The translations under genes were made by a program, and so were the position numbers. A stretch of 59,480 bases of DNA, the filler included, from Bipalium vagum (Eukaryota), in the NCBI GenBank assembly GCA_037834085.1. It is 3 parts of 3 records of this genome, joined end to end, with 100 filler letters (N's around TTAATTAATTAA, not from the genome) between each part and the next. Parts side by side here need not be neighbours in the genome. Positions count along the whole stretch, not along the records: positions 19,916 to 43,474 come from JBBMKC010207820.1; 2 more parts are not named here. One strand, 5' to 3'. Below the pieces are notes generated by a model. It searched no databases. It was given only the letters and a program-made list of their open reading frames with translations, and was not told the DNA's origin. Of this stretch, positions 8,228 to 55,615 are shown one piece after another; position 1 is the first letter of the stretch, and each line of letters starts with the position of its first letter.

Positions 8228-11200
8228 AGTCTTATTGTTGAATATTATTCAACTAATATTGAGATCATACTGCAAGAGATCAAGTCTCATTGCTCGATCA
8301 AAGCAATTCGATTTTCCAATGAGGTCAGAAACTTTCGTAATCTGCAGTTGGTTGAACCCTATGCCTTGGTCACTTGTCTTTTCAGCAAGTAATAATTTCC
8401 TATTTTTTGATTTTTATTTTATTGATTTTTTATATTTTTATTTTCAATTAATAAATAGAAATATTTAATAATATTTATACAATATTCTTCTTATAATTAT
8501 TTTTATTTTTTATTTAATAAGTCAAATTTTGATTTTACTCAATATAAATATTTAATAATATTGATTAAAGAATTAATAAATAGTTTTACAAAATGTAAAT
8601 AAATCTGTGTAATTGATAAAAATTGAAATTTTAATTTTTTGTTGAAAATTATTTAGAAGCACAAATGTTTAATTCCCTGTGCAAGAATCACTTAAAAAGA
8701 AATTAAACAGATAAGGTTTAAAAATAAAATAAGAACATGGTGAAAACCGTATTTAATAAATCATTAAAATTTTCTTTATAATTAATTTTCATTTATATAT
8801 ATGATGATATAAAATAAGAAACAATTTTTATTGATATCAATACTAAATATTTAATTTTATGATATTTACTTATTAAATTCATAGAATTCATTATCATTTT
8901 TTAAAGGTAATTATTGAAATAGAAACTGATTTTATAATACAAGGATTATATGTTAAGTTTTTACTGAATTAATAAAAATAATACTCAAAAATTTAATAAT
9001 AATTAACTAAACGTTTTAATGATAAATTTTTAGGTATATTGATTATTGGGTTGAGGAATAAGTTCGTGTCGTTTATTTTTGAATTGTTATAAATCTCTAA
9101 TTATTTGTTTTAAAAGTTATCTTTCTCTTAGTAGACTCATATTATTAGGTTGTAACAAAATTTTTCATGAATTTTTACAATATATAAAATGAAGAAATTA
9201 AAACAGTTTATTTAAGAATAATATTGAAAATCATTTGGTAACATAATTTCTGTCATTGTTTAGGACTTTCTCCCATCTTTCCACCAATTTATCGAAACCT
9301 TTATTTTAGAAATTGCTAGATTTACTCTGAAAGAAATTTGTGTTCCAAATTTAAAGATCATCCTCGTTCTGAAAAGTAATACCTTTCATTTGGTTTGATA
9401 GCGAGCGGAAAAGAAAAAAAATCAGTTGGCGCAAAATCCGGAGAATACGTAGGGTGTGTAAGAACCTCCTAATCGAGCTCTTGGTAATATTTGCTGTTTG
9501 TGACTTGGGTTTATCATGGAGAAGAATCACTTTGGATCCTTTATATTTGTATTTCACATTAATAATATCGTTTATTCGACGCAATTAGTTTATGTATAGA
9601 AGCTTGTCGACTATCTTACCTTTTGGGACCATTCCCCTGTGTAACAGACCATCCTAATTCAACAAAACACATATCTTTTTTATGCAATTCTGGTTTAATT
9701 CTGGACATACCTGTGCAACCAGGAGCCACCCACTCCTTCTTATACTTTAAGTTTGTATACAAACACCATTTTGCATCCCCTGTTATGATTCATTCAAGAA
9801 AAACGCTCTTTGTAGCCGGGTGTTGCTCGGTGTCTGGCAAGATTTTGAGCAGAAATTTTTTAACGACTTTTTCTGATTTTTTCATTGAGCTGATATGGTA
9901 CACATGAATCAATTTTTTAACAATAACCATTTGATTTTAGGCAGCGGAAGACTGTCATTGGATTGTTGTTCATATTTTGTGACAACTCCCTGCATTTTTC
10001 ACCACAGCCCACTTACACCAATCTGATCAATTGGTTATCGTTGAAATGGGATGGACAACTGGTATGTGGCGTGTTTTGAAGGTCAAATGTGTAATTTTCA
10101 AATTTATTATACCAGTATTTTACAGTTGTCCAGGCCAGAACATTTTTTCCGTACACACTGAAAATTTCCTTGATAGTTTCTGCTATTTTGTTACCGCGAT
10201 TAAAATAAAATAATAATAGGTGTCGAAAATGGTGCTTTTGATCATCAATTTAGCATTTCATTTCAAACCTTTGGATTTTTAAAAAAATTAAATTATATAT
10301 CAAAATATTTACTATAATTTTGTTAATAAGTAAAATAGATTTTAAATAAATGTATTTACTAACAAATAAATATAATCTGGTTAAACAAAAATTTTAATAC
10401 ATTACATTCATGAAAAATTATGTTACAACCTAGTATATTTCAATTTTTTCACAATTTTTAATATTTTCGATACTACATTCTTTAATGAGGTATCTTGGGA
10501 TATTTGTCTCAGCAGAAATTTGGTCTCAATATTAATTTATATCTGCTTAAAGCAGAACAGAAATGAGTTTATTGTAAAACATTAATGGAATGGCTAATTT
10601 TCAGGGGTGCTGTCACGTCAGGATTATTGTATGATTTTCTGTTGATCTACCGACAATTTTACACTGCTGTTGAGTTTGTCGGCGTACTGTCCACAGTTTT
10701 TGTCAATCTTCAACGGAGACTTATCCATCATCAACGACAACTGAACAACGCTAAATTTCGCTTATTGTTTATTATTTTGTGCTGGATCGATGGTTTCTAT
10801 AAAATTGATTTCACTGATCTCGTATGCTCTAAAGTAATGAGTATGGTGAAAAATAATGTAATTTATTCTTCTTTTTAAATTTGAATAATTTTTTTATTGA
10901 TTTTTTAATTTTTACAGTTAATATGTCACATAAAAAATTGTAACGAAATTGTTGAGAAAACTTTTACAGAGGCCAAAAAAAGTGAAACTGTTTCTCCGTT
11001 ACTATTTCAATTTGTATCTCTGAAAAACGGCAACTTTTCGGTATATTTTTAAAATTAATTTTAATTTTTTATTTAGAAATTTTTTAATCAAATATATTGA
11101 GGTTTATAAAATTCAAATTCTAAAATACGCATCTTAGATCTTTTTAAAATGATTATTTATTTTTATAAAACATTTTTAAAAAAGAAATTTCGATACTGTG

Positions 11201-14200
11201 TTTTCATTTTTATATTGATAATCAGTTATTTTAACTATAATTATTATTTGTGATGGGTGCCGAAAATGTTTGTGTTTGTAATATAATATAAGCTAATATA
11301 AAATTTTGAGACAATTCTGGTGGTATTTTAGCTGCCTCCAATTAATAATATCTCTAAAGTCTGTTGGTTTTCTTCTATATACCTGTGTCTCCAAATGTCC
11401 AGAAAGGGAAATATCAAGTGGTATCAAGAAATATCAAAAAATCTTTCTATTCATTATTCAAGTAGAAATACTATTTTAGATTTAATTCTGCTTCTTAATT
11501 GTTCTCTATTTACATTCCTGTAAAAGAAAAAAAGACTATAATAACGGCAATAATTACAATAACAAACAAATAACAATAATAACAAATAATTTTTGGAAAC
11601 AGCGAGACTGTGGTATAATTTCTTTAGGAGGTCCAGTGCTCTAAATTCGACAATTGTGCCTGTTGATTTATCTATTTATGAAAATGTTGCTTCATCAGTG
11701 ACAATCAGATTTTGAAAAAAAGATGGATTATTGTTGATTTCATTAAATAGACTTCTGCACATTGCAATTCTTTCATCATAGTCTTTGTCGTGTAACTTTT
11801 GGATAATTTTGATCTTGTATGGATAAAGTTCTTATCGTACAACATTTTGCACAGATTTAAAATTACATCAAACTTTCTTAGCAGCAATTCGTTGCGATAT
11901 CTCAAATGTTTCTTCATAAACCTAACTTATTTCGTATATTTTGTCATCTCCAATTGATGATCTTTCAGACTTCCAAAGATCACAAACACCTCCAGTCTAT
12001 TTGAATTTTTCAAATATCTTCCTCATTGTTCTTGGTGTAGGTATCTTTTTCCAGTTCAATTGTTCTAAATGTCGTCTGTCTAATGTAATCTCTTCCTCTG
12101 ACTTCTCTTTCTTCAATGGCGAACATTGAAAATACCGTTATTAAATTCGAATTATTAAACCAATTAAGTACTTAAATTAAATTTCGGAAATTCTGTTTTT
12201 TTAGAAAAATGTTAATTGAATGTATTAAATTATATGTATTAGATAGTTGAATTATTTCTGGCTGTTTTTTTCATTCAACGATAATTTAAATCAATTGGCA
12301 AGATTTGTAAAGTATTAATATTTAAATTTTAACATAATGGTATACTATTTAGTTAATTGGTATAAAGCAAACGAAAACCGTTACATTTAATATAACCAGT
12401 TTTCTTTCAAAAAATACATTTGCGAAATGTTTTGCTTTTTCGTTTTCATCTCAAAAGAAGTGCTGCAGAAATCTAGAATGGTCTCAGAAACTCATGCCAA
12501 CCATACTATCCTTGAAACATGTTGTTGAAATTGGTTTAATTTGCACAATAACACCGCCCTGATTAACAAAAGGACTTTTCAGATGAAGATTTGAAAAATT
12601 TGTTGACCAAAGGTTGATCCCAAATAGAATAGTTTAACAAATAGTGCTCAAATATTATTATGATTAGATTTAATATTACTAATTTTCTAAATGATGCAGA
12701 ACTTATGCCCCAACCTAATATATTTCTGAGTTCCAAAATACACGCACTGTATTGCTAAAAATTGTACAATATTTCACTGACTCATTTGAAATTATTATTA
12801 TTATTTATTATTATTTTGCAATACCTTAGTACCTATTTAATTTTGAATTATCAACTGTTTTACTTCTCCATTCTAAGATATACTTGAAATAGTTTTAAGC
12901 TAATTGACATTATGGAATTTTCAAAATATTGAATTTATAAGGATGGTAATCATAATCTGGGATTTAATATTTTTTAATTTTAAAGATTCGGTTTAAACAT
13001 AACTTTTCGTAATTTTGAATAATATATATTTATAAGCAATAAAACATGCTTAGTATTTTATTTACAAATAATGATCAAAAGTTAATTGATGACATCTTTT
13101 TTGTTTTTACTTAGAATCTCATCTATCTTTCCACTAATTTTTCTAAACTTTATTTCATAAACAGCTAGATCCACTCAGAAACAAACTGGTCAACCATTTT
13201 AGAGGTCATCCTTCTTAAAAGTGATGCCTTTCAGTTGGTTAGACAGCGATTGGAAAAGATAGAAATTTATTGAGGAGAGTCCTAGAGAATTTGGAGGATG
13301 TTGAAGAACAATCAAGTCGAGTTCCTAAATGGTTTTTCGGAAGATATTTGCTATATGCAGTTTCTCGTTATTGTGAGGGAGAATGACTTTGGCTCGTTTT
13401 GCATTTCTTTCCTCTTTCATAATTTCGTTTATTTAACGCAATTGATTTATGTATCATGAGATATGTGCTTGTTGACTGTGTGGTTTTCCAGAATCATTTC
13501 TAAATGTATGAGACTGACCCATTTCCACAAAACAAAGATCATGATTGTCTTGCGATGAAAATCTTTTATAATTCTGGATATTGTTGCACAAGATCTAACC
13601 AACCACTCCTTTCTGTATTTCAAGTTTGTATACAAACACCATTTCTCATCTCCTTTGATGATTCGTTAAGGAAACCATTTCTTATTACTTTGTGTAGGGC
13701 GTTGTCTGGAAAGATTTTGAACTCCAATTTTAAAACGACTTACTTTGAGTTATTCGTTTAGTTGATATGACGCACAAGCATCACATCAATAGTTATATTC
13801 ATTTGATTTTAGGTGGCGAAAAATTAGGTGTGTGGATTGCTTTTTATACACCGAGATAAATTTCTGCATGTTTCACAGCCGTTCTTTTTCATGATTGCGA
13901 TCAGCTGGTCATAATTGAAATCTGATTATTGACCAGTATATGGAATATCTAAAAGACTGAATTTTTCGAATTTAAGTCTCAATACAATTTCAGAAAATTT
14001 TTTTTTCAGAAAATTTAAATTATATAAATTATGTATTAAATTGATAATTATTAAAGTTAGTAAGTTTAACTTTAATTTTATTTTTTTCTAAAAATGAAAA
14101 TTTCTGATATCATAATGAATTTATTATAATTTAATTTATTTAACTTTAAAACGTAAGCAAACTATATTTTGATCAGAGAGTCAATTTGATACCGAATGTT

Positions 14201-17200
14201 GATATCGGAAATGTGATATATTCGATTGAGCAAAACCGTAAAGAAAAACAAAAATTATACACTTGGTTGAATATAAATGTTGAAAAGCCTAGAAGACCAA
14301 AAAATCAAGATGTCTTTTCCATTCTTGATTTTTCACCAAAGGACCTGGCCATATCTTTATCATTAATGGAACAGAATTTGCTTAATAATATCCATCCTTG
14401 TCACCTGTTATTATGTAAGTCGACCGATTTTATTTTTCTTTCTTTTTATTTACTATGGATTTTTCCCGAAAGATATAAATTCATTGTCCTGCAATGAAGA
14501 AAGCATTCTTCAAACAATCAAATCTCACAGATTCTCCCCAAATTCCCTTAACGGCAGCAGTACACATCACAGAGAGATCCTTTTAATTTTGCGCCATTCG
14601 GGAAAAATCACACATTGGGCAATATCGGAAATTCTTCGAACCACAGATTCTAAGTTGCAGGCCAAAGTAATTTGGGTTCAGATTTCAAAACACTGCGATT
14701 GAATGTTTTTTATTTATTGATAACAGATAGTAAAGGTTCTCATAATCACTTGCATTTGGTGTTTGGAGTTGAATAACTATTCGACGACTATCAGTGTTTT
14801 GGAAGCCTTGCAATCAGTGACATTGAAATGGGCACCTTTTTGGGCTCATGTAAAGCCGAAAACTGTGAAAATATTGAAAGAATTAGACGCCATAACAAAT
14901 CAGTTCTCAAGAAACACTTCCAACTTGTCCACGAATGATAAATGTTTCAGTAAATTATTTCTGAACGGCTCTCCTTTTCTGCCCTGTGTGCACGCTGTTC
15001 TGGTCAATCTCAAACTAACAATGGTAGGCAAAGTTATCACCAAAGACAAATGTCTAAAATGGACGAAATTAAAGTAAATTTTATTTATTTTGTATAGTTC
15101 TAGTAAGAATTTTATAAAAATAAATTTTGTTATGGCCGAAAATCAATATAATGAACTTTATAATAATAATAATAATAATAATACAGTAGAATCCACTTAA
15201 TGTCATCACAGTTGGTGTTATCAAAAATATCAATTCCCGATTTTGTCTATGTAAATTAATTAAAAATAAGCCGTTTATTCTAATAAAAAATTCTGATTAT
15301 TTTATCAATTTATTAATAATTAAATTTTATCATCTAATAAAGAATTTTACAAATCAGTTACATTTGTTTAAATATTAAGACGGATTATTACACATTTTAA
15401 AATTTCTGGATTCAAAGATAAATATGAAGCCTGTGGATTTATCGGTAAACACAAAAAGATGTCTAGAGTACTTTGACAAGTTACATAAAATGAGTCCACA
15501 AATTGTAGTTATATTCATATAAAAATTTTGCAACCTCTTTTATGTAATCTAATAAAAACAGAACACATTGAAACTGAAAGACTTACTAATGCAAATATGA
15601 ATCGGAAAATTATGTCCAAGTTGAATCAGTTTTAAAAATTTTGCTCAGAAATGTTCGTGAGAAATATGCTCCGAATAACAGGCGATAAAAAGCAGTGGAA
15701 TTTACAAAAAATGTGAGTTTCGAAAATTTCTAATGCAACCGTTGGATGGTTTTGAAATGGAAAAATCGAAAAAATTTCGTGTACAAGCACATGGTTGGTG
15801 ACGAAAAAAGTGCTGATTTTTTTAAGGCCGATTATTGGGTACATATACTATGGCTGGTAAAAAATTATTGGTGAGTATGCTTCTAAGGATATTTACAACG
15901 CAGGGGAAACAGCAATCTATTTTCGAGGAATACATGAACATACACATAAAAATGAAAGTGATAAAGGATTCAAAACTTTAAAAGACCGAGTGAAAATTCT
16001 TTGTCATGCAAAAATGGAAGGTGAGAAAAGAGATTTATTAGTAATTGGAAAAAGTAAAAATCAACCTGTTAATTATGATTCTAGTCAAATTTATTGATAA
16101 CAAGTATAATTTTTAAAAAATGGTTGGTTAAATGGGATCTTCAAGAAAAACAAAAAATTGTCTTAGTAATAAAAAACTGCTCGACACATCGAATCAATGT
16201 CATTAAAGAATATCAAAATTAGTTATTTACTTTCGAATATTGCATCGTTAATTCAGCCACGTGATCAACTTATTATATGAACTTTAAATGATTATTATCA
16301 CAAAAAATACGTGCACGAATCACTTGATAATCTAGATCTATTTGACACAAATAAAATTACAAACAAATTTGCTCTTCTTGAATCATTGCAATTCGTGTCA
16401 ATGTATAAGCATATCGCAGAGAACTCATTCAAAAACTGTTTCAAAATATGAGTTTTTTTAAACAAGAATTTTATGATACTGCTGGCGATATCTTGAACCA
16501 TCAATTAAAAGTCAAAAAAAGGAATTTGATATTTTTTTTAGATATTGATAATGAGGTCCAAACAACATAAACAATGACGACATCAGACATTTGTCAATAT
16601 TTTATAGGTCCCAATATATCACCAAACAATGAAGATAAAATTTTAAAAGAAATTTTAGAAATTCCTCCAAATGATTCTCAAATATAAGAAGCTTTAAAAA
16701 TTTTCTCCACTTTGTTGGATATAAAGAAACGCCAAAAAACACTGGATGAATATTTCAAAAAATATTGTTTTATAAAATGTGAATTTAGGAAAAGGAAAAA
16801 AAGTAGATAGATATTATAATTTTTTATATCCGTCAGTTAATGTTATCAAATGTAACAGGTACCAATGTGATTACATTAAGCGGATTCTACTGTAATAATA
16901 ATAATAAAATAATTTCAAAATCGTTCAGAAACGTTTTGTTACTTCTGAATATTTTTAATTGTTTGGCTGTCATTATTTTGGTGTTTGGAAGATTGGTTTC
17001 ATCTACGTGTGATTGATTGTTTCATTGACACTAATCATCTATAGAAAAATTACCGATATATTGGATCAAATACGACTCAATCTACAGTTCAAATACATAT
17101 CCAATAATTCAGAGATCAACAAACTGAAAAACAAATTGTCAGCTCGAATTGATCATTTGACGAGTATTTCTTTAGACATTCTTCAGTCTCATAATATGCT

Positions 17201-19915: not shown

Positions 19916-20165
19916 AAGAGACTCGGGGCGGTTAAGGATATAGATGTGAGCTTTAAAGGAGGGTATGTGAGATAATTTGAAATTAGTCGGGGTATGTAGC
20001 TCAGTGGTCAGAGCAGTTCATGCGCAAAAAATAGAATGGAAAGGAAATTGAAGTAAGAGACTCGGGGCGGTTAAGGATATAGATGTGAGCTTTAAAGGAG
20101 GGTATGTGAGATAATTTGAAATTAGTCGGGGGATGTAGCTCAGTGGCCAGAGCAGTCCCTGCGCA
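19916..20165 (+). repeat. 139-bp tandem duplication including the 5' half of a tRNA-Ala-like sequence
   Basis: 19916-20026 is nearly identical to 20055-20165. Confidence 0.9.
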
Positions 20166-20201
20166 TATGAAGGGTCCCGAGTTCGAATCCCGCTATCTCC
20201 G
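20129..20201 (+). pseudogene. tRNA-Ala(CGC)-derived pseudogene or SINE head
   Basis: GGGGATG TAGCTCAGTGG (A box) ... GAGTTCGAATCCC (B box) ... TATCTCC, followed by a T-run. Anticodon stem and T stem are mispaired. Confidence 0.8.
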
Positions 20202-20574
20202 TAAAATTTTCAACTGACACTACTGTAAAACTAATATTTTTAAATCAGCAATAAAATTTTAAAATATGTAGATTAAAAAATTTATTTCGGATAAAATTTT
20301 TACAAAATTTGGATTTGATTTATTTTTAAAAACATTTTTAGAAAAAATAATACAGAGCGAATTTTGAACTCGTGAATTATTAAAGAATTATTTTAATCAT
20401 TAAAATTCCAACTTGTGATTTCTAATCTCTACCAAACAATAACTTATATTTTAACTAAACTTTATTTTCAAAGTTATTAATTTTTTTATTTTGTACTATA
20501 AATTATTAAATCATTAAATTTTTTTGATTAATATCACAAGAACTTTAGATTTTATTCATAAATATTATTATTAC

Positions 20575-21092
20575 CTGACACTTGCATATTTCCTTGTTTT
20601 ACTGCTATAATATGTTCTCCTATTTCTTTTGGAGTAAAATGAATATGAAAAACACTGTTGTAATAATCAATAATATCCGTAAATATGACTTTTCCAGATG
20701 GGGATTTTATCTCAGCGCACATATTTAATGCAGATTCAAAATCTTTTTAAAAACAGTAAAATAGTATTATTTACTAAAATAACCAATACGAATTTCAAAC
20801 CTTCAGATACAAAGTTGATTTCTTGTTTTACAGATTCATTATAAAAATGGTGAGGGTTGTGATGAAATTCACCAATTTTTCTAAAATCATTTACTAAAGA
20901 AGCTTCTTTGATGTCGTTTGTTATTGGATAATTCTTTTTAACTGAATTTGGAAAATTATATTCATAATTTGTGATATGTCTCGGTGTGCTATTAGTTTCA
21001 TACATGACAGAATTGGTTGATGGTTTAAAAATATAAGAACTAAGATTCGGAGAAATCAAATCTCGTTTCTGAAAATATCTTTTATAAGTCAT
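20575..21092 (-). CDS. Filamin-repeat protein, first two coding exons (3' part lost at linker)
   Basis: Exon 21092-20801, 58-nt GT-AG intron, exon 20742-20575. Spliced peptide ...NFVSEDFESALNMCAEIKSPSGKVIFTDIIDYYNSVFHIHFTPKEIGEHIIAVKQGNMQVS(G) fits the filamin Ig repeat consensus SPSG...D...Y.V.F.P.E.G.H.I.V...G..V.GSPF. Confidence 0.85.
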
Positions 21093-22076
21093 GATTATGA
21101 AATTTTAACCAGTAATTATTAATTAAATATTTAAGTTTGATCATTATTAATGATTTCATTATTGTCCATTCTCATACTTAAAACATCATTAAATATCCAT
21201 AATTTTCATTACAATGAAATTAAATATCATCATATAATACGTCACGCTTAAAGTCATACAATAAAATAGTTGTTTTGATGAAGTTATGTTTTCATAACTT
21301 GTCTTGAAAATCAAATCAGAAAACGTAAAAACAAATGAAAATGTATTATTTTTTCAAATAAAATAAATTTTCAATATAGTCCATTATTTTTAGTTATAAA
21401 ATAAATTAAATACTGTAAAAATATTGGTAATCCTGCAGTTTAGGTGCAGTTTTAAACAGATTTTAAGTAATAAGTAGTTTATATTTATTTTTATTAAAAA
21501 TTAAGAGGGTAAAATAAAACACTTAAATTTTGTTTAATTTCAGTCTTTATTTGAAAAATTTTCTGATTTAAATAATTTTTTGTTTTACTTATGTTTTAAT
21601 AAAAATAAATGTAAGCTACTTACTAATATGAGTAAATAAAATCTGTTCAAATATAAAATTACAAAATTATTAAACAAAATCTAAAATGAAAATAAATATA
21701 AAAATAAATATCCTACTGAGCCATCTTTCTCAATTTATTTTTCAGACAAAAACTAACTCCGCCGGACTCATAGGTGTTGTCTTCTATAAAGATGTGTTTA
21801 AAGTATACTCAATTTCAGGTAAAGTTTCTTCCTAATCGGTTTTCTCTCTATCTTTTAAAGTTGCATTTACATATTTTCTAATGGTACAAAATTGTTACAC
21901 AAAATTGGCGCACACGCTCATTCGTTCGTCAAAAACGTTTTTACAAATAAGATCCCATTTGTGTGGCACATAAAATTTAAATTTTTTTCATACATATAAA
22001 ATATACCTAAAAATCAAAAAATAATAAAAAAATAAAAATCAAATAATATTAAAAAAATTATTTTTTCTTTAAAAAA

Positions 22077-23640
22077 ATTGCAAGCGAAAATAATATTAAT
22101 CAAAAAAAGATAGCGAACCCAGAATTTAATATTGATGAATGGCAAGCTATACATAAAAACTTACCTTTTGAAAATTATCCTTTTCCGGATAATTTATTTC
22201 ACGATGATTTTAATCAGACAACCGAAATAGTAGATGGTAATTTGATTCATTATTTAAATTCTCATTATTATAAAAAACATCTTGGTTCAGTTTTTCAATA
22301 TAAGATTTCACCAGCAGATACAACTTCAAAAAATAATCGTAGTTTTATAAATTTTATTTTAGAAACCGTTACAAATGATTCAGATAATTATAGAGTTAAA
22401 CTAACACACATCCTATAATTTATTCAAAGCATGGCTCATTTCCTTTAACAACTAAAGATAATGTAATTAATTTATTATATTCGAAATTAGAATTTTTTTT
22501 ACAATCTGCTGAAGAAACAAATAACTTTTAAATAAATAATGTAACTTTTGAATTTTTAATAATACCAATACCTCAAGGAAAGGAAAAAGATTATATTAAT
22601 TATAGTGGTAATAATTCTACAAATTTAATATTACAAACTATTGCGAAAAATTCAATTAATATAATTCAAAATAATGATTCACTTTGTTTGACTAGGTCAA
22701 TAGTAACTTCTTTAACTTATGATAATTTCAAAAATAAAAAATATTTAAACATTGGAGGAAAAGATAATAGAATTAGATATATTAGAAGAAAAGATAAAAT
22801 TCAAGAATGGGCTATAAAATTACATAATACGGCACAAGTAGAAATTAAAGAAAATGGTAATAATATTGATGATTTAAAATTATTTGAAAATCATTTACAT
22901 TTAAGAATTATAGTTTATCATCACAATAATAATAATTCTATTTTATATAGAAGCGATGAAAATTTTGAAAAACACGTTATGATAAATAAATAAAAAGAAA
23001 ATTTTATAAAGAAAATCATCACTTTATTTCAATTGCAAAAATATCAGCTTTTTCACAATCACAAAAATATTATCACAAATGTTTACTAGCATTTCAAAAT
23101 CAACATAAATGCAAAGTAGATAGTGTTACAACTTATAGTAATTCGAAAATTTGTGAAGATTGTAAACAAGAATATTCTAATAGATCAGACCATGTGGTTA
23201 TAAAAATTGTCCAATTTGTGATGAAACTTATGAACCACCTTTTAATCAACATAAATGTTATATGAAAAATAATGAAGGAAATTTTAAACAAAGTAATAAA
23301 TATTTATTTTTTGATTTTGAATCTACTCAAGAAAATAAAGGTTATCTTGAAATGAATTATGCAATAGCTTATGATACTAAAAGAAAAATATATTTTAAAA
23401 TACAAACAAACACAATTTCATATTTTTTAATTAAATTAAAATTAGAAAATTTAATAATTGAAAATATTCAAAATAATATTGAATTTTTAAAAGACGTTAC
23501 AATTGAAAATTCAAACTCTTTTATTGATACCTTCTGTAAATTTTTCATTAGTGACGATTTCAAACAATTTACTTTTATAGCTCATTATGCAAAAGGTTAT
23601 GATAACCATCCAATTTTAGGTTGGTTGATTCGGAATCCAT
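22077..23640 (+). pseudogene. polB: Protein-primed family B DNA polymerase 5' half (Polinton/Maverick/adintovirus type), frameshifted and truncated
   Basis: Intronless. Motifs FLQS..IPIPQG..KNSINIIQNNDSLCLTRSIV, QEWAIKLH, LKLFENHL, NHHFISI, CxxC/HxC clusters, ExoI YLFFDFESTQ and ExoII FIAHYAKGYDNHPILGWL. Confidence 0.85.
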
Positions 23641-24236
23641 GAAAATCTTCGGACAACAGTAACAAATTTTGGGTCTTCCGACAAAATATAATCAAGTGTT
23701 CTCGATTTCTCTTCTGACAATCAAAATAATAACTCTCGATCTCTCTTCTGACAACCAAAAATAATAATTCTCGATCTATCTTCTGATAACCAAAAATAAT
23801 AATTCTCGATCTATCTTCTGTGGCAATCCACTGCGGATTCCAACTCCTTATATACTATTCTGATCTGACGATCAATCAATCGTAGACCAGCTTTATCAAT
23901 GGGGAATGTCAATTCCCTTTTTAGACCGATAATTCTAAATCGGTCCCTCCTTGCGGACGCTGATCTAATCTTGGCAATTTAGGTTCGTTATTATCAAGAT
24001 TAAATCCTTTTTTGGAAATAATTAATTGCCTCTTTTTTTATTTGGATGTACTTTTTAATTAATTAATTAACTATTATTATCATTAATTTATTATTATTAA
24101 AAATAATAATTTATTTCTGACCCTCTTGCGGTCTTAATAATTAATTTATAATAACCAATCTAAACCCTATTGTGGCCTCTACCATACTTCTACTTTTACA
24201 AGGGTTGGCAAGGATGTGTCCTTAGCTAACCCAACA
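23640..24236 (-). mobile_element. Solo-LTR-like insertion truncating PolB
   Basis: Abrupt GC rise. On the minus strand it begins TGTTGGGTT and has TATATAAGGAG (about 23846-23856) followed by tandem repeats. No TSD recognised. Confidence 0.5.
23701..23820. repeat. 34-35 bp tandem repeat, 3.5 copies
   Basis: Unit CTCGATCT(C/A)TCTTCTGA(C/T)AACCAAAAATAATAATT starting at 23701, 23735, 23770 and 23805. Confidence 0.92.
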
Positions 24237-24339
24237 ATATTAAAAATATCAATTTTTAAGAAATGAAACCGATATTTAAGCAATAAAAAATTAGAAACAA
24301 AAATTAATTTTCAAGTATTGCAAAACTATTATAAATATT

Positions 24340-25377
24340 TTTCATTATTTCATCTCTTGGAATTTTATTATATAAATAATCTTTTACATTATTAATAAAT
24401 TTTTTATCATAGTTTAAGTGAAAGTTTGTTTCATAAGAGCATTGTTCGCTTTCATCCCTTCAATTTGTTTTTTTTCTTTGAATAAATTTTTATTTTCATA
24501 TATCTTTATACATTTTGTTCCAATAATTTCTGTTTGTAGTGCAATAGATTTTCCTTTAAATTCTGTTTGAGTTATTTTATCAATTTATCCATGAGTATTT
24601 AATATTCTTTTTTGTAATCTTTTAACTTCATTTTTATATTTTTCAATTTCTAAAAAACTTTCTTTCTTCAAATTTCCAATCTTTTTTTTCATATTTTAAA
24701 TTAAAACTTGTATTCATTACTTTTATAGGTTCTTCAGTATTATTTAATTCTCCCTTAATAATAAATTTCTTTTTAAAAGTTTTTAATTTCTGTTTCAATA
24801 CATTTATTAAATTCTAAATTTTCCAATTTTTCAGTTTTCATATTTTTTTTGTAAATCATTATATTCTCTTTTATAATTATTTAAATAATTTTCTAATTTA
24901 TCTATTATATTACCTTTTTGGATTAAATTAATTTCTAAATTTTTTTGTATATTATTAACTTGTTTAAGCTTTTCTTCATTTTCTTTTATAATATTTTTTA
25001 AATCTTGTATTTCTAATTTATATGATTTTATTTTTTCATAATTTTCTTCATGAATATTAATTTTAGTTTCTTCTAAATTTTTAATTATATTATTTAATTG
25101 AATAATTTTTTCATCTTTATCCTTTTTAAGGTTTTTATAATGATTTTTTTCATTAGTTTTTTCTTTTATTTCATTGTTTAATTTATTTATTAAAGAATCA
25201 TTTATTGCAAAACTTCTGCTATTTCACATCACTTAGATTACTTACTTCCTTACTTATATTACTTAATTCCTTACTTACACTTATATTTTCAATATGTATT
25301 TTAGTTTTTTCATGATTCCATTTATTATTTTTTGAAATATATTTATTACAATATTTACAAAAATAATTATCTACCAT
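24340..25377 (-). pseudogene. Decayed C2H2 zinc-finger + K/E/N-rich coiled-coil gene (probable accessory gene of the Polinton-like element)
   Basis: ATG at 25377: MVDNYFCKYCNKYISKNNKWNHEKTKIH. After a frameshift near 25225, about 100 open codons (INDSLINKLNNEIKEKTNEK...EEKLKQVNNIQKNLE), then broken continuation. Intronless. Confidence 0.6.
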
Positions 25378-26379
25378 TTTTTAATAAAAAAAATGAAAAT
25401 GTAGCCCACCTAACAACTTGACAAATTAAAAATAATTATTAGTAAAATAACTAAAGAATAATTTTGATTTACCAATATAAGAAGTGGTGACATAAATGTC
25501 CCAACCTAACAACTCTACAATTAAAAAAATATTTTTTAGTATACCTATACCTACAATTATTTTTTTTTATTGAATCAAAAAACTTAAAGAAAACCATTCA
25601 CCAGATTCGTTATTTTCACTCCAGGGTTTGTATACTCTTCATATTATAGATTGAGTTCTTCTAGAAATTAAATTAAAAATTGTTATTTTGATCAACAAAT
25701 TTTCATTTTAATTGAGTTGTGTAAAAAATGTAGAAAAATATAATTTGTAAAAAGAGTGTTATCTTATTTGTGTTTAGTGCTTTTAAACCTTTACTGAAGT
25801 CAAATATTGATAAACAAAACCGTAACAGATTCCCATATTGAAGAAAGATGAGAAACAGCAAAGAATTCCCATTTAGAGGAAAAAAAATTTGAAATTTGAA
25901 TTTTTTGACCTACCTAATGAAATTGAAAAACAAGAGTAGAATGAGATCTCAATATAAATAAAATTAGATAGGAAGATTGAGAGAAAATTATTTCAGTAGC
26001 GAAATTAATTGTGTTTATGAAAGTAATATAAGTAAAGTAATATAAGATAAAAGTAAATTTTTAAAAATTATTTTTTTAAAAAAATTGTAAAAAAAATCCC
26101 AAGAATTAATAATAATAATTATTGGTTGCATCCATAATTTTTAAAGACCATAAATTTAATTTAATTGATATTTCAAATTGTTTATATAGACTTAATTTAG
26201 TTATAAAAATGGATTTTAATTATTGAGTCAATAATTTAAATTTTGCCGTGATAATTATATTGCATAACTGAAACATTTTTATAATTATTCTAATTGTATA
26301 TTCAACAAAAAACAAAGAAATATCAAAGGCATGTTTGAATTAATTGCTTCAAGCCCTTTTATTTTATTTTAAATCTAGA

Positions 26380-36886
<10,507 letters not shown>

Positions 36887-50300: not shown

Positions 50301-52654
50301 AGCTGGACGAAATTTAATTATGTTCTCATTTAATTTGTTCAATTGATGACAGTATTTGTTGCATCAATTGTCTGATTTGATTCGAGCAATTCCAAATATA
50401 CTACCCCACGACAATCCCAACAAATAAAAATCATAGCTTCTTTAGGATGAAGACCCGGTTTGGTGTTGAAATCGGGGTTTCACCTGGAAAAAACCATTGC
50501 TTTTGTCTTTTGGGATTGAGGTACTGAATCCACTTTTCGTTCCCGAGACAATACGTTGAAGAAACGGATCACTGTTGTTCTTCAGAATCAGTGATTGACA
50601 AACAGATAGTCTAACAGCTTTATTTTTTTCGGTCAACTCATGGGGTACCCAGACACATGCCTTATATGACTTTCCAGTCATATCTAAGTGGGTCTTAACT
50701 GTAGTAGGACTAGTGTGACCGTAGAGCCACGGATATATTCGTACAAGTACCAATTTTGAACATTTTGTTTAGTCCGGAAAAATGTATCCACTGAATTATA
50801 AAAATTATAATATAAAAAATAAATATGATTTCTTATACTTTCAAATATTGCGCTTCAAATATTTCTATATCAATATTATTAAAACAAAAATAAAATTGCC
50901 AATATTTAGCAATTAATTTTAACAATTAGAAAAACGATGTTACTTTCTTATTCGCCTAATAATTGTCACACTAAAAAATAACATTATCTTATGTACAAAG
51001 ATTTTAAATATTTGTAAATATTAACAGAATGTTATTATTTCTACTGTTTTACCAATTTTATCAAGCAAAGAATACAAATATCAAGAATAAAACATTACAA
51101 ATTATTTGCTGCATTTTCATAAAAATCTTTTTTTATTTAAAACAAAAATTTAAAACAAAACATTCAATTCTAATAATTTATTGAGGTGTCATTTTATTTG
51201 AAGTTACAAAGTTAATGAATGACCATCAATTACAGCTCATCAATAGAATTAAACTGCTTTCTACTAACATAAACCGTACGCACCATCACTCCATATACAT
51301 TTTCGATGCAACTTAAGTCATGTGAGCCATAACTTGAATTTAGCCATTCTTATAGCTTCTGCTATCATCAATTAAAAAAGTTATTTAAATTTTGATTTTC
51401 TTTAAAAAAAATCAAGATTTCTTAAATTTACAAGGTGCAGCAATTAATTTGTGTGGATATAACAATTTTAAAATTCTTAATTTTAATAAGAAATCAGAAT
51501 GCTCAAAAAACGTAAAATTTCATTTTCAAAATTTATTTATTTTCAGGAAAATATGAATTGAATATGTCGATTGTAAAGTATCTCCAGGTTTCTTTTGAAG
51601 ATGTAAGATCAAATGGTTATGAAAATGATCATAGAAATGTCAATCTAGACAGATTTAACTTTTTGATTCACTGTCAATATATAAAAAAACCTCTGTAGAA
51701 AGGAAAAAAATATTATTATCAATGTAAATATTAATTTGAAATTTCTTGTCATGGAAATAAATAAAATAATTATTTCTGTGTCAGAATATTAAAGCTCATT
51801 GTTAATAATTGATAAACTTGTGAGAATAATAAAATTAAAATAAATGCAGCTGACATGAATATGACAATGAAAAATATTTCTTCACGGAATATAAAATAAT
51901 AATAATATCATTATAAAATAATAATTCCATCCCTTTCATCTGAAAAAATATTTTGAAATGAAACAATTTGTTTAATATCAATAAAGTATTAAGGTAAATT
52001 ACACTTATGAAGATTTTTGTAATTAGTGAAGAGTTTATGTAATAATGCGATATTTATTAAAATTACAAATAATTAAATTAAATACTAAAAATTAACAAAT
52101 TATTATTCTATTAGATTGGTGCAAAACTATTGGCCGATTTTTAATAAATATTTTAAAATTTTAAAACTCAGTTCAAATGAAACTTTTTTCGGGTGAGACA
52201 TATTTGTGTCAGAATAGGACACAAAACTCGCAAAAAACAGATGGATAGCCTAAAATGTCATAAAATCCTAAAATGTGCCCAGAGTCATGAAAAGAAAATT
52301 TCCTTTAAAATTCATGGTGTTTAGTGTTGCTCGTAGTGAAGGTGATGTTATGACCTTCACTAGTTATTGTAGTACCTAATATGAAAAGATTGAAATAAAA
52401 ACACAATAAGCTAATAAACCTAAATCGTCCATTAATTTTGTGCTAACATATATTGGATTTTTATAAATAAATATATATAATAAAATATATATAATAAAAT
52501 TTATTAATTAAAATAGCTTGTTTGTTATTACTATTAATCCAGAACATTTACCTGTACTTGTCTAAGTTCATTGATTTTGTGGCTGTAAACTGGAATTTTA
52601 TTTCAATCTTGTTCGATTCTTTTGTGATGGAAGGAGTCAAAATTTCTTCATTAC
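47322..52654 (-). CDS. Ig-superfamily cell-surface protein (nephrin/kirre/sidestep-like C2-set domains), two internal exons
   Basis: Exon 52654-52552 splices in phase 2 to the exon starting at 47589, giving IEIKFQFTATKSMNLDKYSCKV...EITIRVIYLP..LRAGEVSNFTCQTDESNPAAEINW. The donor of the second exon is uncertain (about 47344 or 47322). Confidence 0.8.
48700..49440 (-). mobile_element. Possible decayed hAT-type transposase remnant
   Basis: Minus-strand I*WLSHFKIMTRTLRL (TRWLS-like) and NKQSLQSDDEPDL. Many stops. Confidence 0.35.
49898..50959 (-). mobile_element. Mariner with both TIRs and a 5' internal deletion
   Basis: TIRs TTAGTTAAGTCAGAAAGTAACTTTCGTTTTT / AAAAACGATGTTACTTTCTTATTCGCCTAA with TA flanks. 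Motifs WVPHELTE, HQDNARPHT and HPPYSPDIAPTDFHLFRSL. Confidence 0.93.
51190..51370 (-). mobile_element. Tc1/Tc3-like 3' remnant
   Basis: SHDLSCIENVYGVMVRTVYVSRKQFNSIDEL resembles SPDLNPIENLWG...VY..GKQF. Confidence 0.6.
52111..52450 (+). mobile_element. 340-bp non-autonomous ITm element (maT/DD37D-like core)
   Basis: TIRs TTAGATTGGTGCAAAACTATTGGCCGATTT / AAATCGTCCATTAATTTTGTGCTAACATA with TA flanks. Internal NVPRVMKRKFPLKFMVFSVARSEGDVM. Confidence 0.75.
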
Positions 52655-54344: not shown

Positions 54345-55615
54345 TTAGGTGTACAACATGACTCCGGCTTTTTTAATTAGAAAACAAAAACATTTATTAC
54401 AAATTTTATTTAAAAACATTTATTGAAAATATGTTCAATTGGAAGCTACAACGTTTGCCCACCTTTCAGGTAACGAATGAATTCCATGACAAAAAAACTC
54501 TGGCTCTTTTGATGAAATCCAGCTGTCAATCCAATTTTGGAGGTCTTCAAGAGAACTGACCCGCTCTCCGAAAAGTGCTGATTGCAAAGAGCGGAACAAA
54601 TGGTAATCCGAAGGAGCGATGTCTGGTGAACAGGGCGGGTGAGGTAAGACTTCCCACTTTGTACATTCTAAGTAATTATTTACAATTGAATTAAAGTGTG
54701 GTCTTGCGTTATCATGTTGGAAAATTATCTTTTCGTGTCTTGTCTCCCATTTCGGTCGTTTTTCATTCAAAGCTTTCTTCAAACGAATTAATTGTGATCG
54801 ATAAAGTTCACCGTTAGTGTTGGAGAAGATTTTAAAAATTCATAATAGATCACTTCACCAGATACACAACATAACTTTCAAACCGTGGGCATTTTGTTTT
54901 TGTATTGATGGATCGGATTCACCTGGCATCACCCAAGCTAATTTGCGTTTTCGATTGTCATAACGAATCTATTTTTCGTCTCCTGTGATAATTAGATGCA
55001 AAAAACATTTTTATTTTTTGTCACTGAAGAAGGACATCACAAATTGTTTTTCACCGTTCAATGCATCTTTCTGTCAATTCATGTGAGATCCAAATTCCTA
55101 ATTTTCGAATAATTCCTAAAGCTGCCAGACGTTTTGAAATGCATTGTTGAGTCACTTTTAATGCGACAGCCAGATCAGATTGTGTTTGGAATGGGTCTTC
55201 ATCCACCAGCCTTCTCAAATTTCTATCTTCACATTGTTTTTGTGGCTTCCAATGCCCCTTGTCGTTTGTATCATATTGGCTATTTCTAAAACGGCGAAAC
55301 CAATCTTTACATGTGTTCATCGAAGGAGCATGTTCTCTTTAGATGTTTCAAAGCAAGCGGTACGTTTCCGTTGCAGTTTTCTTGGCAAAAAATAATGTAT
55401 AATTACTTCCCGCAAATGTCGTTTATTTGGGATGAATATTGACATTTTGAATCTCTATAATATTTAAACAAGGAATATCAAAACAACTGTCTCGTGATAT
55501 TATTAATCATATGATATTTTTGTTTATAAATCAATTCAATACAATTTAGATATATAGGCAAACAAAATTTTTATTAACATTTAACAAAAAGCCGGAGTCA
55601 TAGTTATACACCTAA
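54345..55615 (-). mobile_element. Full-length (1271 bp) mauritiana/Mos1-like mariner, transposase frameshifted
   Basis: TIRs TTAGGTGTACAACATGACTCCGGCTTTTT / AAAAAGCCGGAGTCATAGTTATACACCTAA with TA flanks. ATG at 55445 gives MSIFIPNKRHLREVIIHYF. Motifs WISHELTE, ITGDEK*I, HDNARPH and HPPCSPDIAPSDYHLFRS. Confidence 0.95.

Follow-up and report, generated by a model that had tools for sequence, protein, structure and literature searches.

The genome assembly of the flatworm Bipalium vagum (GCA_037834085.1) contains, within a 59,480-nt stretch analyzed here in full (the window), a block that is likely a dead, deleted germ-line remnant of a Polinton/Maverick, a reading to which we assign a probability of roughly 85%. 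The block lies within the part of the window drawn from JBBMKC010207820.1 (19,916-43,474), where no N occurs, and consists of the broken front 40% of a gene for a DNA polymerase of family B that is protein-primed (pPolB), hereafter the polB stump, together with a broken zinc-finger gene. The stump is homologous to pPolBs, bears a vOTU protease, a Cys-rich linker and an exonuclease in that order, is interrupted by frame breaks and ends after the second exonuclease motif (ExoII), and no polymerase core was found in the window.

On their own, the polB pieces had no meaningful match in sequence searches against Pfam, PHROGs, NCBIfam and the PDB, and the assignment had to go through relatives. A full-library search with the exonuclease piece returned 53 matches at E<=0.001 among 1.84 billion representatives, and a single protein among 348 candidates, P0001, matched the stop-free piece 23184-23639, at 47% identity. 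P0001 is a complete 1363-aa pPolB of family PF03175 (DNA_pol_B_2) encoded on a 7-kb contig from a JGI/IMG metagenome. A tblastn comparison, made to check the original prediction of a Polinton/Maverick/adintovirus-like remnant, aligned P0001 residues 152-543 with 22409-23636 (+) at E 3e-68, through three collinear segments (22409-22984, 23002-23178 and 23193-23636) and with about 33-57% identity depending on the piece; residues 544-1363 matched nothing significant in the window. What had been described as the 5' half of a PolB is thus indeed a front part but not a half, as about 40% of the polymerase is covered. When P0001 and 14 longer matches were scanned, 13 of these 15 long relatives proved to be DNA_pol_B_2 proteins and the remaining two were N-terminal fragments (544 and 579 aa) ending near the exonuclease; the outcome that had been named as adverse, best matches to cellular or non-pPolB proteins, did not materialize. 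Of the 1808 stop-to-stop pieces into which the whole window divides, a profile of 12 pPolBs hit only 3 at E<0.001, all of them in the block, and it detected no second polB copy.

The stump comprises a presumed terminal-protein end, the vOTU protease, the Cys-rich linker and the exonuclease, an arrangement that appears to follow the TP-vOTU-EXO-PALM order described for polinton polymerases (PMC11071308). ExoI (FFDFESTQ, 23307-23330) and ExoII (IAHYAKGYD, 23577-23603) are present on the + strand where they had been predicted, and the catalytic Cys and His of the vOTU align with conserved columns. Homology stops just past ExoII, at the stop codon 23640-23642. Upstream of the vOTU, 22409-22520 matches P0001 residues 152-188 (E 4e-11), and the piece before it, probably N-terminal, has no match in Pfam, PHROGs or NCBIfam; position 22077 is in frame with this first piece but is not an ATG, and the first ~60 codons from there match nothing found. 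Stop-free runs of at least 45 aa cover 93% of 22053-23642 (+), against a shuffle mean of 17% and none as high in 300 shuffles. When the relative P0018 was modeled with AlphaFold from 22 aligned rows (mean predicted local distance difference test 72.7, predicted template modeling score 0.41), the model weakly matched OTU proteases and phi29 polymerase in the PDB (E 1e-3 to 1e-2, one match at E<=0.001), and in BFVD it matched PolBs of adintoviruses, MELD viruses and mavirus, 17 of them at E<=0.001 and an adintovirus at E 2e-10. The model places an alpha/beta domain ahead of the vOTU, but no terminal-protein match was returned. The PF03175 relatives, the Polinton genes on some relatives' contigs and the OTU-like fold collectively support the predicted type of PolB.

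Frame changes near 22410, 22990 and 23185 and an in-frame stop at 22529 divide polB into four pieces. Introns were rejected as the cause: the gaps span a few to ~20 nt and none is GT-AG. The intronless character ascribed to the block is thereby borne out, the breaks being short and none having an intron-sized GT-AG gap. The idea that terminal protein and polymerase are naturally separate at 22529 was likewise rejected, because this stop lies ahead of the conserved Gly in the linker leading to the vOTU. With its frame breaks and nonsense change, the stump is predicted to make no working enzyme.

In a FastTree phylogeny of the exonuclease region, built from the 39 of 60 candidates with both motifs and the window piece, the latter pairs with P0001 (support 94), and P0002 joins the two in a clade of three (97). 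P0001 shares with the stump an unusual ExoI-ExoII insert and a short Cys-rich linker in addition to its sister position, but is intact and full length. P0001 and the other relatives in this clade are singletons, and scans of IMG/VR confirmed no relative with P0001 (0/4 stretches) or with the vOTU piece (0/24). With only 47% identity to its nearest known protein, the family probably has no entry in the collections searched (Repbase and Dfam lay outside the comparison). A motif, VDG..FxGCxxHG..WECEF, occurs in P0001 (residue 762) and in 4 more of 11 full-length relatives, and presumably represents a VSR-like insertion; Pfam gave it no name and no VSR profile matched. The polB region that would carry it is absent from the window. 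Such an insertion is a mark of Group I Mavericks (PMC10328495), and because P0001, the nearest relative, carries it, the parent element was probably a Group I Maverick; as Pfam did not name the motif, this class stays a likelihood and not a result.

Polinton-type genes accompany some of the more distant relatives. The contig L007 carries an rve integrase and an A32 ATPase, L001 an A32-like ATPase that does not reach the Pfam threshold, and L003 BIR and F-box genes. L007 (1-13354, from IMG/VR) is a compact Polinton-like contig whose pPolB has the VSR-like motif and whose integrase lies in two open reading frames (ORFs); it also has a 552-aa ORF labeled by eye as capsid-like, as well as two GIY-YIG-like genes whose products have C-terminal Cys/His fingers. 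As a separate observation, the Polinton-like polB of L001 and L002 is divided, identically in the two contigs, into three long stop-free pieces; the gaps of 33-57 nt between them may be short introns.

The second gene of the block converges on the stump from the opposite strand, and the facing zinc-finger/coiled-coil gene of the original prediction is confirmed by its zf-U1 match and by its coding density. The finger (25222-25380, -) exceeds the Pfam zf-U1 cut-off (27.1 bits vs 22), and open frames of at least 45 aa cover 92% of 24300-25380 (-), with a shuffle mean of 6% and 0/300 shuffles as high. At least five frame changes interrupt the gene, and its downstream pieces, rich in K, N, E and I, are probably coiled coil. 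A scan of IMG/VR with the zinc finger confirmed 0 of 73 stretches as relatives; look-alikes in the Atlas, at 0.88-0.94, are small or nucleocytovirus zinc-finger proteins and serve as a lead only. It probably belonged, as an accessory gene, to the element that carried polB. Just upstream of it stand two 36-nt motifs, 78% identical and 96 nt apart (25405-25440 and 25501-25536), possibly promoter or subterminal repeats.

A gap of 0.65 kb separates the two genes, and its first 0.4 kb has 35% GC. In this middle segment a 35-nt unit is repeated in tandem 3.5 times (23699-23820), and the motif TCTTCnGAYAA occurs five times (23646-23789). The segment has no Rfam match, no tRNA, no protein family match and no folding excess (z -0.16), and the openness of its minus strand is borderline (16/300 shuffles as high). 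The GC content of the block as a whole is 21.8%, compared with 25.9% for the window and 19-21% for the intergenic flanks, and equally low values are found in 4.6% of equal-sized windows; the polB stump stands at 21.7% and the zinc-finger gene at 17.3%. The block therefore resembles host intergenic DNA in composition and is only mildly AT-rich, particularly with 35% GC at 23641-24030, so that its earlier description as extremely AT-rich was overstated.

Table 1. Features of the block and its surroundings, in window coordinates.
Feature	Position	Strand	Basis
Host filamin-repeat gene, 5' coding exons	20555..21092	-	Pfam Filamin E 8.8e-6 (exon 20555-20746); ATG, GT/AG read from sequence
Stretch with several stops, possibly the end of an rve-type integrase; probably separate from the Polinton	21745..21900	-	Read by eye; unproven
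Stop-free piece, probably N-terminal/terminal-protein part of pPolB (weak)	22077..22418	+	Local score 51 to P0001 residues 93-135; 19/1000 shuffles as high
End of presumed terminal-protein region and most of vOTU	22409..22993	+	P0001 152-323, 41% (tblastn); profile E 6e-21
In-frame stop	22529-22531	+	In pPolB piece 22409..22993
vOTU Cys motif DSLCLTR	22676-22696	+	Conserved alignment column
vOTU His strand (23014-23034) and start of Cys-rich linker	22990..23190	+	P0001 323-381, 32% (tblastn); profile E 2e-4
CxxC knuckle, ExoI and ExoII of proofreading exonuclease	23184..23642	+	47% to P0001 392-543
GC-richer (35%) segment at truncation point	23641..24030	.	Composition step
Decayed gene, N-terminal U1-type C2H2 zinc finger (ATG 25377) and coiled-coil pieces	24307..25380	-	zf-U1 E 3.7e-6
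Host long-chain acyl-CoA ligase (ACSL3/4-like) gene	26380..36880	+	Pfam AMP-binding; exons 65-98% identical to P0058

As had been predicted, the block is framed by divergent host genes, with a Filamin-repeat exon (-) on one side and AMP-binding exons of the ACSL gene (+) on the other. It lies ~1 kb from the start codons of both, and no sign of a regulatory effect was seen. The best named matches of P0058, the relative of the ACSL gene, are from Macrostomum, Fasciola and Schistosoma. In a tree of 29 rows that includes six window exons, the gene nests inside the flatworms, where it joins neither the trematode-cestode clade nor Macrostomum (supports 100), a placement drawn from this one gene and made at the level of the flatworms as a whole. 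A 158-bp unit with 38-nt inverted ends (87%), resembling a miniature inverted-repeat transposable element, also lies at 21468-21625, after the filamin gene and before the polB stump.

Several observations weigh against a Polinton/Maverick origin. When 62 ORFs from the loci of six relatives were compared with the window, only one PolB matched. No terminal inverted repeats (TIRs) were found, the best scores of 36, 40 and 31 comparing with means of 32-36 for shuffled sequence. None of the 15 fetched loci carries a relative of the zinc-finger gene. The contigs that do carry Polinton genes belong to more distant relatives (~26% in the exonuclease piece); the 6 loci that the metagenome scan yielded did not include the P0001 contig. 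In addition, the joints between block and flanks are known from the assembly sequence alone, and the host placement leans on the single ACSL gene. Capsid, ATPase and protease genes were likewise not found in the window, inverted repeats sought between the two flanks, or pairing either with the middle segment, did not rise above shuffle level, and terminal AG/AGT motifs were no more frequent than by chance. The original prediction had already stated that the other genes and long TIRs are not visible here, and the ORF and TIR searches agree. In the absence of a capsid, an ATPase or TIRs at the locus, the block is classed as Polinton-derived and not as a complete Polinton; missing virion genes are what a deleted remnant would show.

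An integrase-like stretch, not remarked upon earlier, lies ~180 nt upstream of the polB stump. Statistically it is a weak signal and, if real, it is more likely derived from a retrotransposon, to judge from its sequence. In a motif scan of four loci, L012 proved to be a Ty3/Gypsy-type pol, and L011, L013 and L014 were without a long ORF carrying the motif. Against the L012 integrase the stretch scored 38, as did or exceeded 7 of 1434 window stretches, a comparison that is circular because that integrase was picked by the motif itself. Its match to the Polinton integrase of L007 is at chance level, the integrase ORFs of L007 match nothing in the window, and the stretch has no match in Pfam, PDB, PHROGs or NCBIfam.

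The two genes of the block need not have a single source. A possible, if doubtful, scenario is a composite in which polB is Polinton-derived and the zinc-finger gene and the segment with the 35-nt repeats come from other insertions (a retrocopy, a piece of a giant virus or some further transposon), an arrangement compatible with a Polinton polB. The want of relatives of the zinc-finger gene on the fetched loci and in IMG/VR, the nucleocytovirus proteins among its Atlas look-alikes, the abrupt GC step at 23641, the abundance of other decayed transposons in the window and the possibly Gypsy-type integrase scrap just upstream would all fit such a patchwork. Yet both genes are intron-free, similarly AT-rich and decayed, and converge within 0.7 kb like packed viral genes; L007, moreover, has accessory genes that combine stretches rich in K, E, N and Y with a Cys/His finger at the C terminus, and the window zinc finger weakly matches one of these genes (E 0.14). 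A different carrier altogether, such as a cytoplasmic linear plasmid, a bidnavirus, an adenovirus or an integrase-less MELD virus captured by chance repair, appears unlikely. While no integrase, capsid or TIRs were seen at the locus and the BFVD matches include PolBs of a MELD virus, of mavirus and of bird 'parvoviridae', the stump keeps both the vOTU Cys and His that adenovirids and bidnavirids have lost (PMC11071308) and hence does not show the inactivated vOTU of Adenoviridae and Bidnaviridae. Furthermore, the Atlas neighbors of P0001 are eukaryotic PF03175 clusters, mostly from Nematoda among the few with a record, and L007 and L001 are Polinton-like.

That a misassembly or a contaminant read was joined into a host scaffold is highly improbable. 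The scaffold does contain five N runs, one with a 111-nt duplication beside it, and short-read assemblies fail at repeats, but there is no N within 19916-43474, the composition of the block is that of host intergenic DNA, and its many small lesions point to long residence in the genome and not to a free virus. The intact catalytic Cys/His and ExoI/ExoII motifs might suggest a domesticated, intron-split or recoded gene still serving the host as a deubiquitinase or exonuclease. This idea is largely refuted and has next to no likelihood left, as the breaks of a few to ~20 nt include an in-frame stop and offer no GT-AG intron, separate the vOTU Cys from its His, and are compounded by the loss of ExoIII and all that follows.

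For the Polinton/Maverick remnant, we infer an integration route, a deletion history and a common origin of the two genes. By analogy with its family, the parent would have been a Polinton/Maverick of 13-25 kb (PMC11071308, PMC6431247) that copied itself with a terminal-protein-primed polymerase, the vOTU cutting off the primer domain, and that entered the germ line through its own rve integrase. Loss of the polymerase core, virion module, integrase and ends through at least one large deletion would then have left two converging gene stumps joined by the 0.65-kb segment, in which neutral small indels and a nonsense change could subsequently accumulate. At most, the remnant may feed silencing by PIWI-interacting RNAs (piRNAs), as reported for the Polintons of Schmidtea (PMC8532177).

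Animal genomes commonly contain decayed Polinton pieces, and flatworms are among the hosts already known. Because such remnants are common and Mavericks have already been described in flatworms, the block can be regarded as an ordinary genomic fossil. Its main interest is as a marker: it hints that a small clade of metagenomic polymerases has a flatworm host and provides a probe for full-length elements in the Bipalium vagum genome, where intact copies may plausibly exist elsewhere. A bolder and rather tentative proposal is a putative undescribed lineage of flatworm Group I Polintons with a giant-virus-like zinc-finger/coiled-coil accessory gene and intact capsid-coding copies in the genome. 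From that perspective, the stump lies closer to the environmental polymerases P0001, P0002, P0004 and P0006 than to any named element found and, if the proposal is true, would point to a candidate DNA virus in a non-model flatworm.

The window contains further repeats. A decayed DNA transposon at 15183-16893, which we take to be pogo/Tigger-like, has ~55-nt terminal inverted repeats (80%) and transposase-like pieces (+), and stands just after RasGEF exons. Mariner-like transposase remnants occur at 981-1283, 50445-50768 and 54438-55338 (all -), with weak Pfam support for the last one only. A 0.9-kb dispersed direct repeat, 67% identical, is found at 9144-10002 and 12986-13876. Lastly, the 111-nt duplication by the N gap (19916-20201), possibly an assembly artefact, overlaps a tRNA-like match, scored at 30.8 bits by Rfam but without a call from ARAGORN, that is probably a SINE (short interspersed nuclear element) head or a tRNA pseudogene.

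Known systems provide several points of reference. Polintons are 13-25 kb long with TIRs and target site duplications (TSDs), and pPolB1 homologs linked to an integrase are reported from 960 genomes, in passages of that study that do not name flatworms (10.1101/2023.08.22.554363); their general features are described elsewhere (PMC6431247). Typical hallmarks are TIRs of 100-1500 bp and a TSD of 5-8 bp. No paper on flatworm Polinton polymerases as such was found in the literature searched (Repbase Reports and most subscription papers lay outside the search), and six flatworm genus names had 0 matches in one supplement file of the adintovirus study (PMC8502044).

The block resembles the Group I animal Polintons/Mavericks (Kapitonov and Jurka 2006, cited in PMC10328495), with which it shares the vOTU and exonuclease front of pPolB, intron-free packed genes, a chromosomal location and, in the nearest relative of the stump, the VSR-like insertion. 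In contrast to these elements, only 40% of polB is present here and no integrase, ATPase, protease, capsids, TIRs or TSD were seen. The proposed adintoviruses (Starrett et al. 2021, PMC8502044) offer a second likeness in their OTU-PolB, their animal hosts and their degraded copies, which are described as widespread in animal germ lines, and their PolBs are the best BFVD fold matches of P0018; they differ in that no adenain, FtsK-type ATPase, hexon, penton or rve integrase was found at the locus. The signals for Alpha and Beta adintoviruses conflict, as P0001 passes PF03175 (Alpha) yet has the Group I-type insertion (Beta) (PMC8502044). A third point of comparison is the planarian Polintons/Mavericks, which are piRNA targets in Schmidtea (PMC8532177) and have expanded in Dugesia (10.64898/2025.12.11.693146), and which, compared by description only, belong to the same superfamily and inhabit the same phylum.

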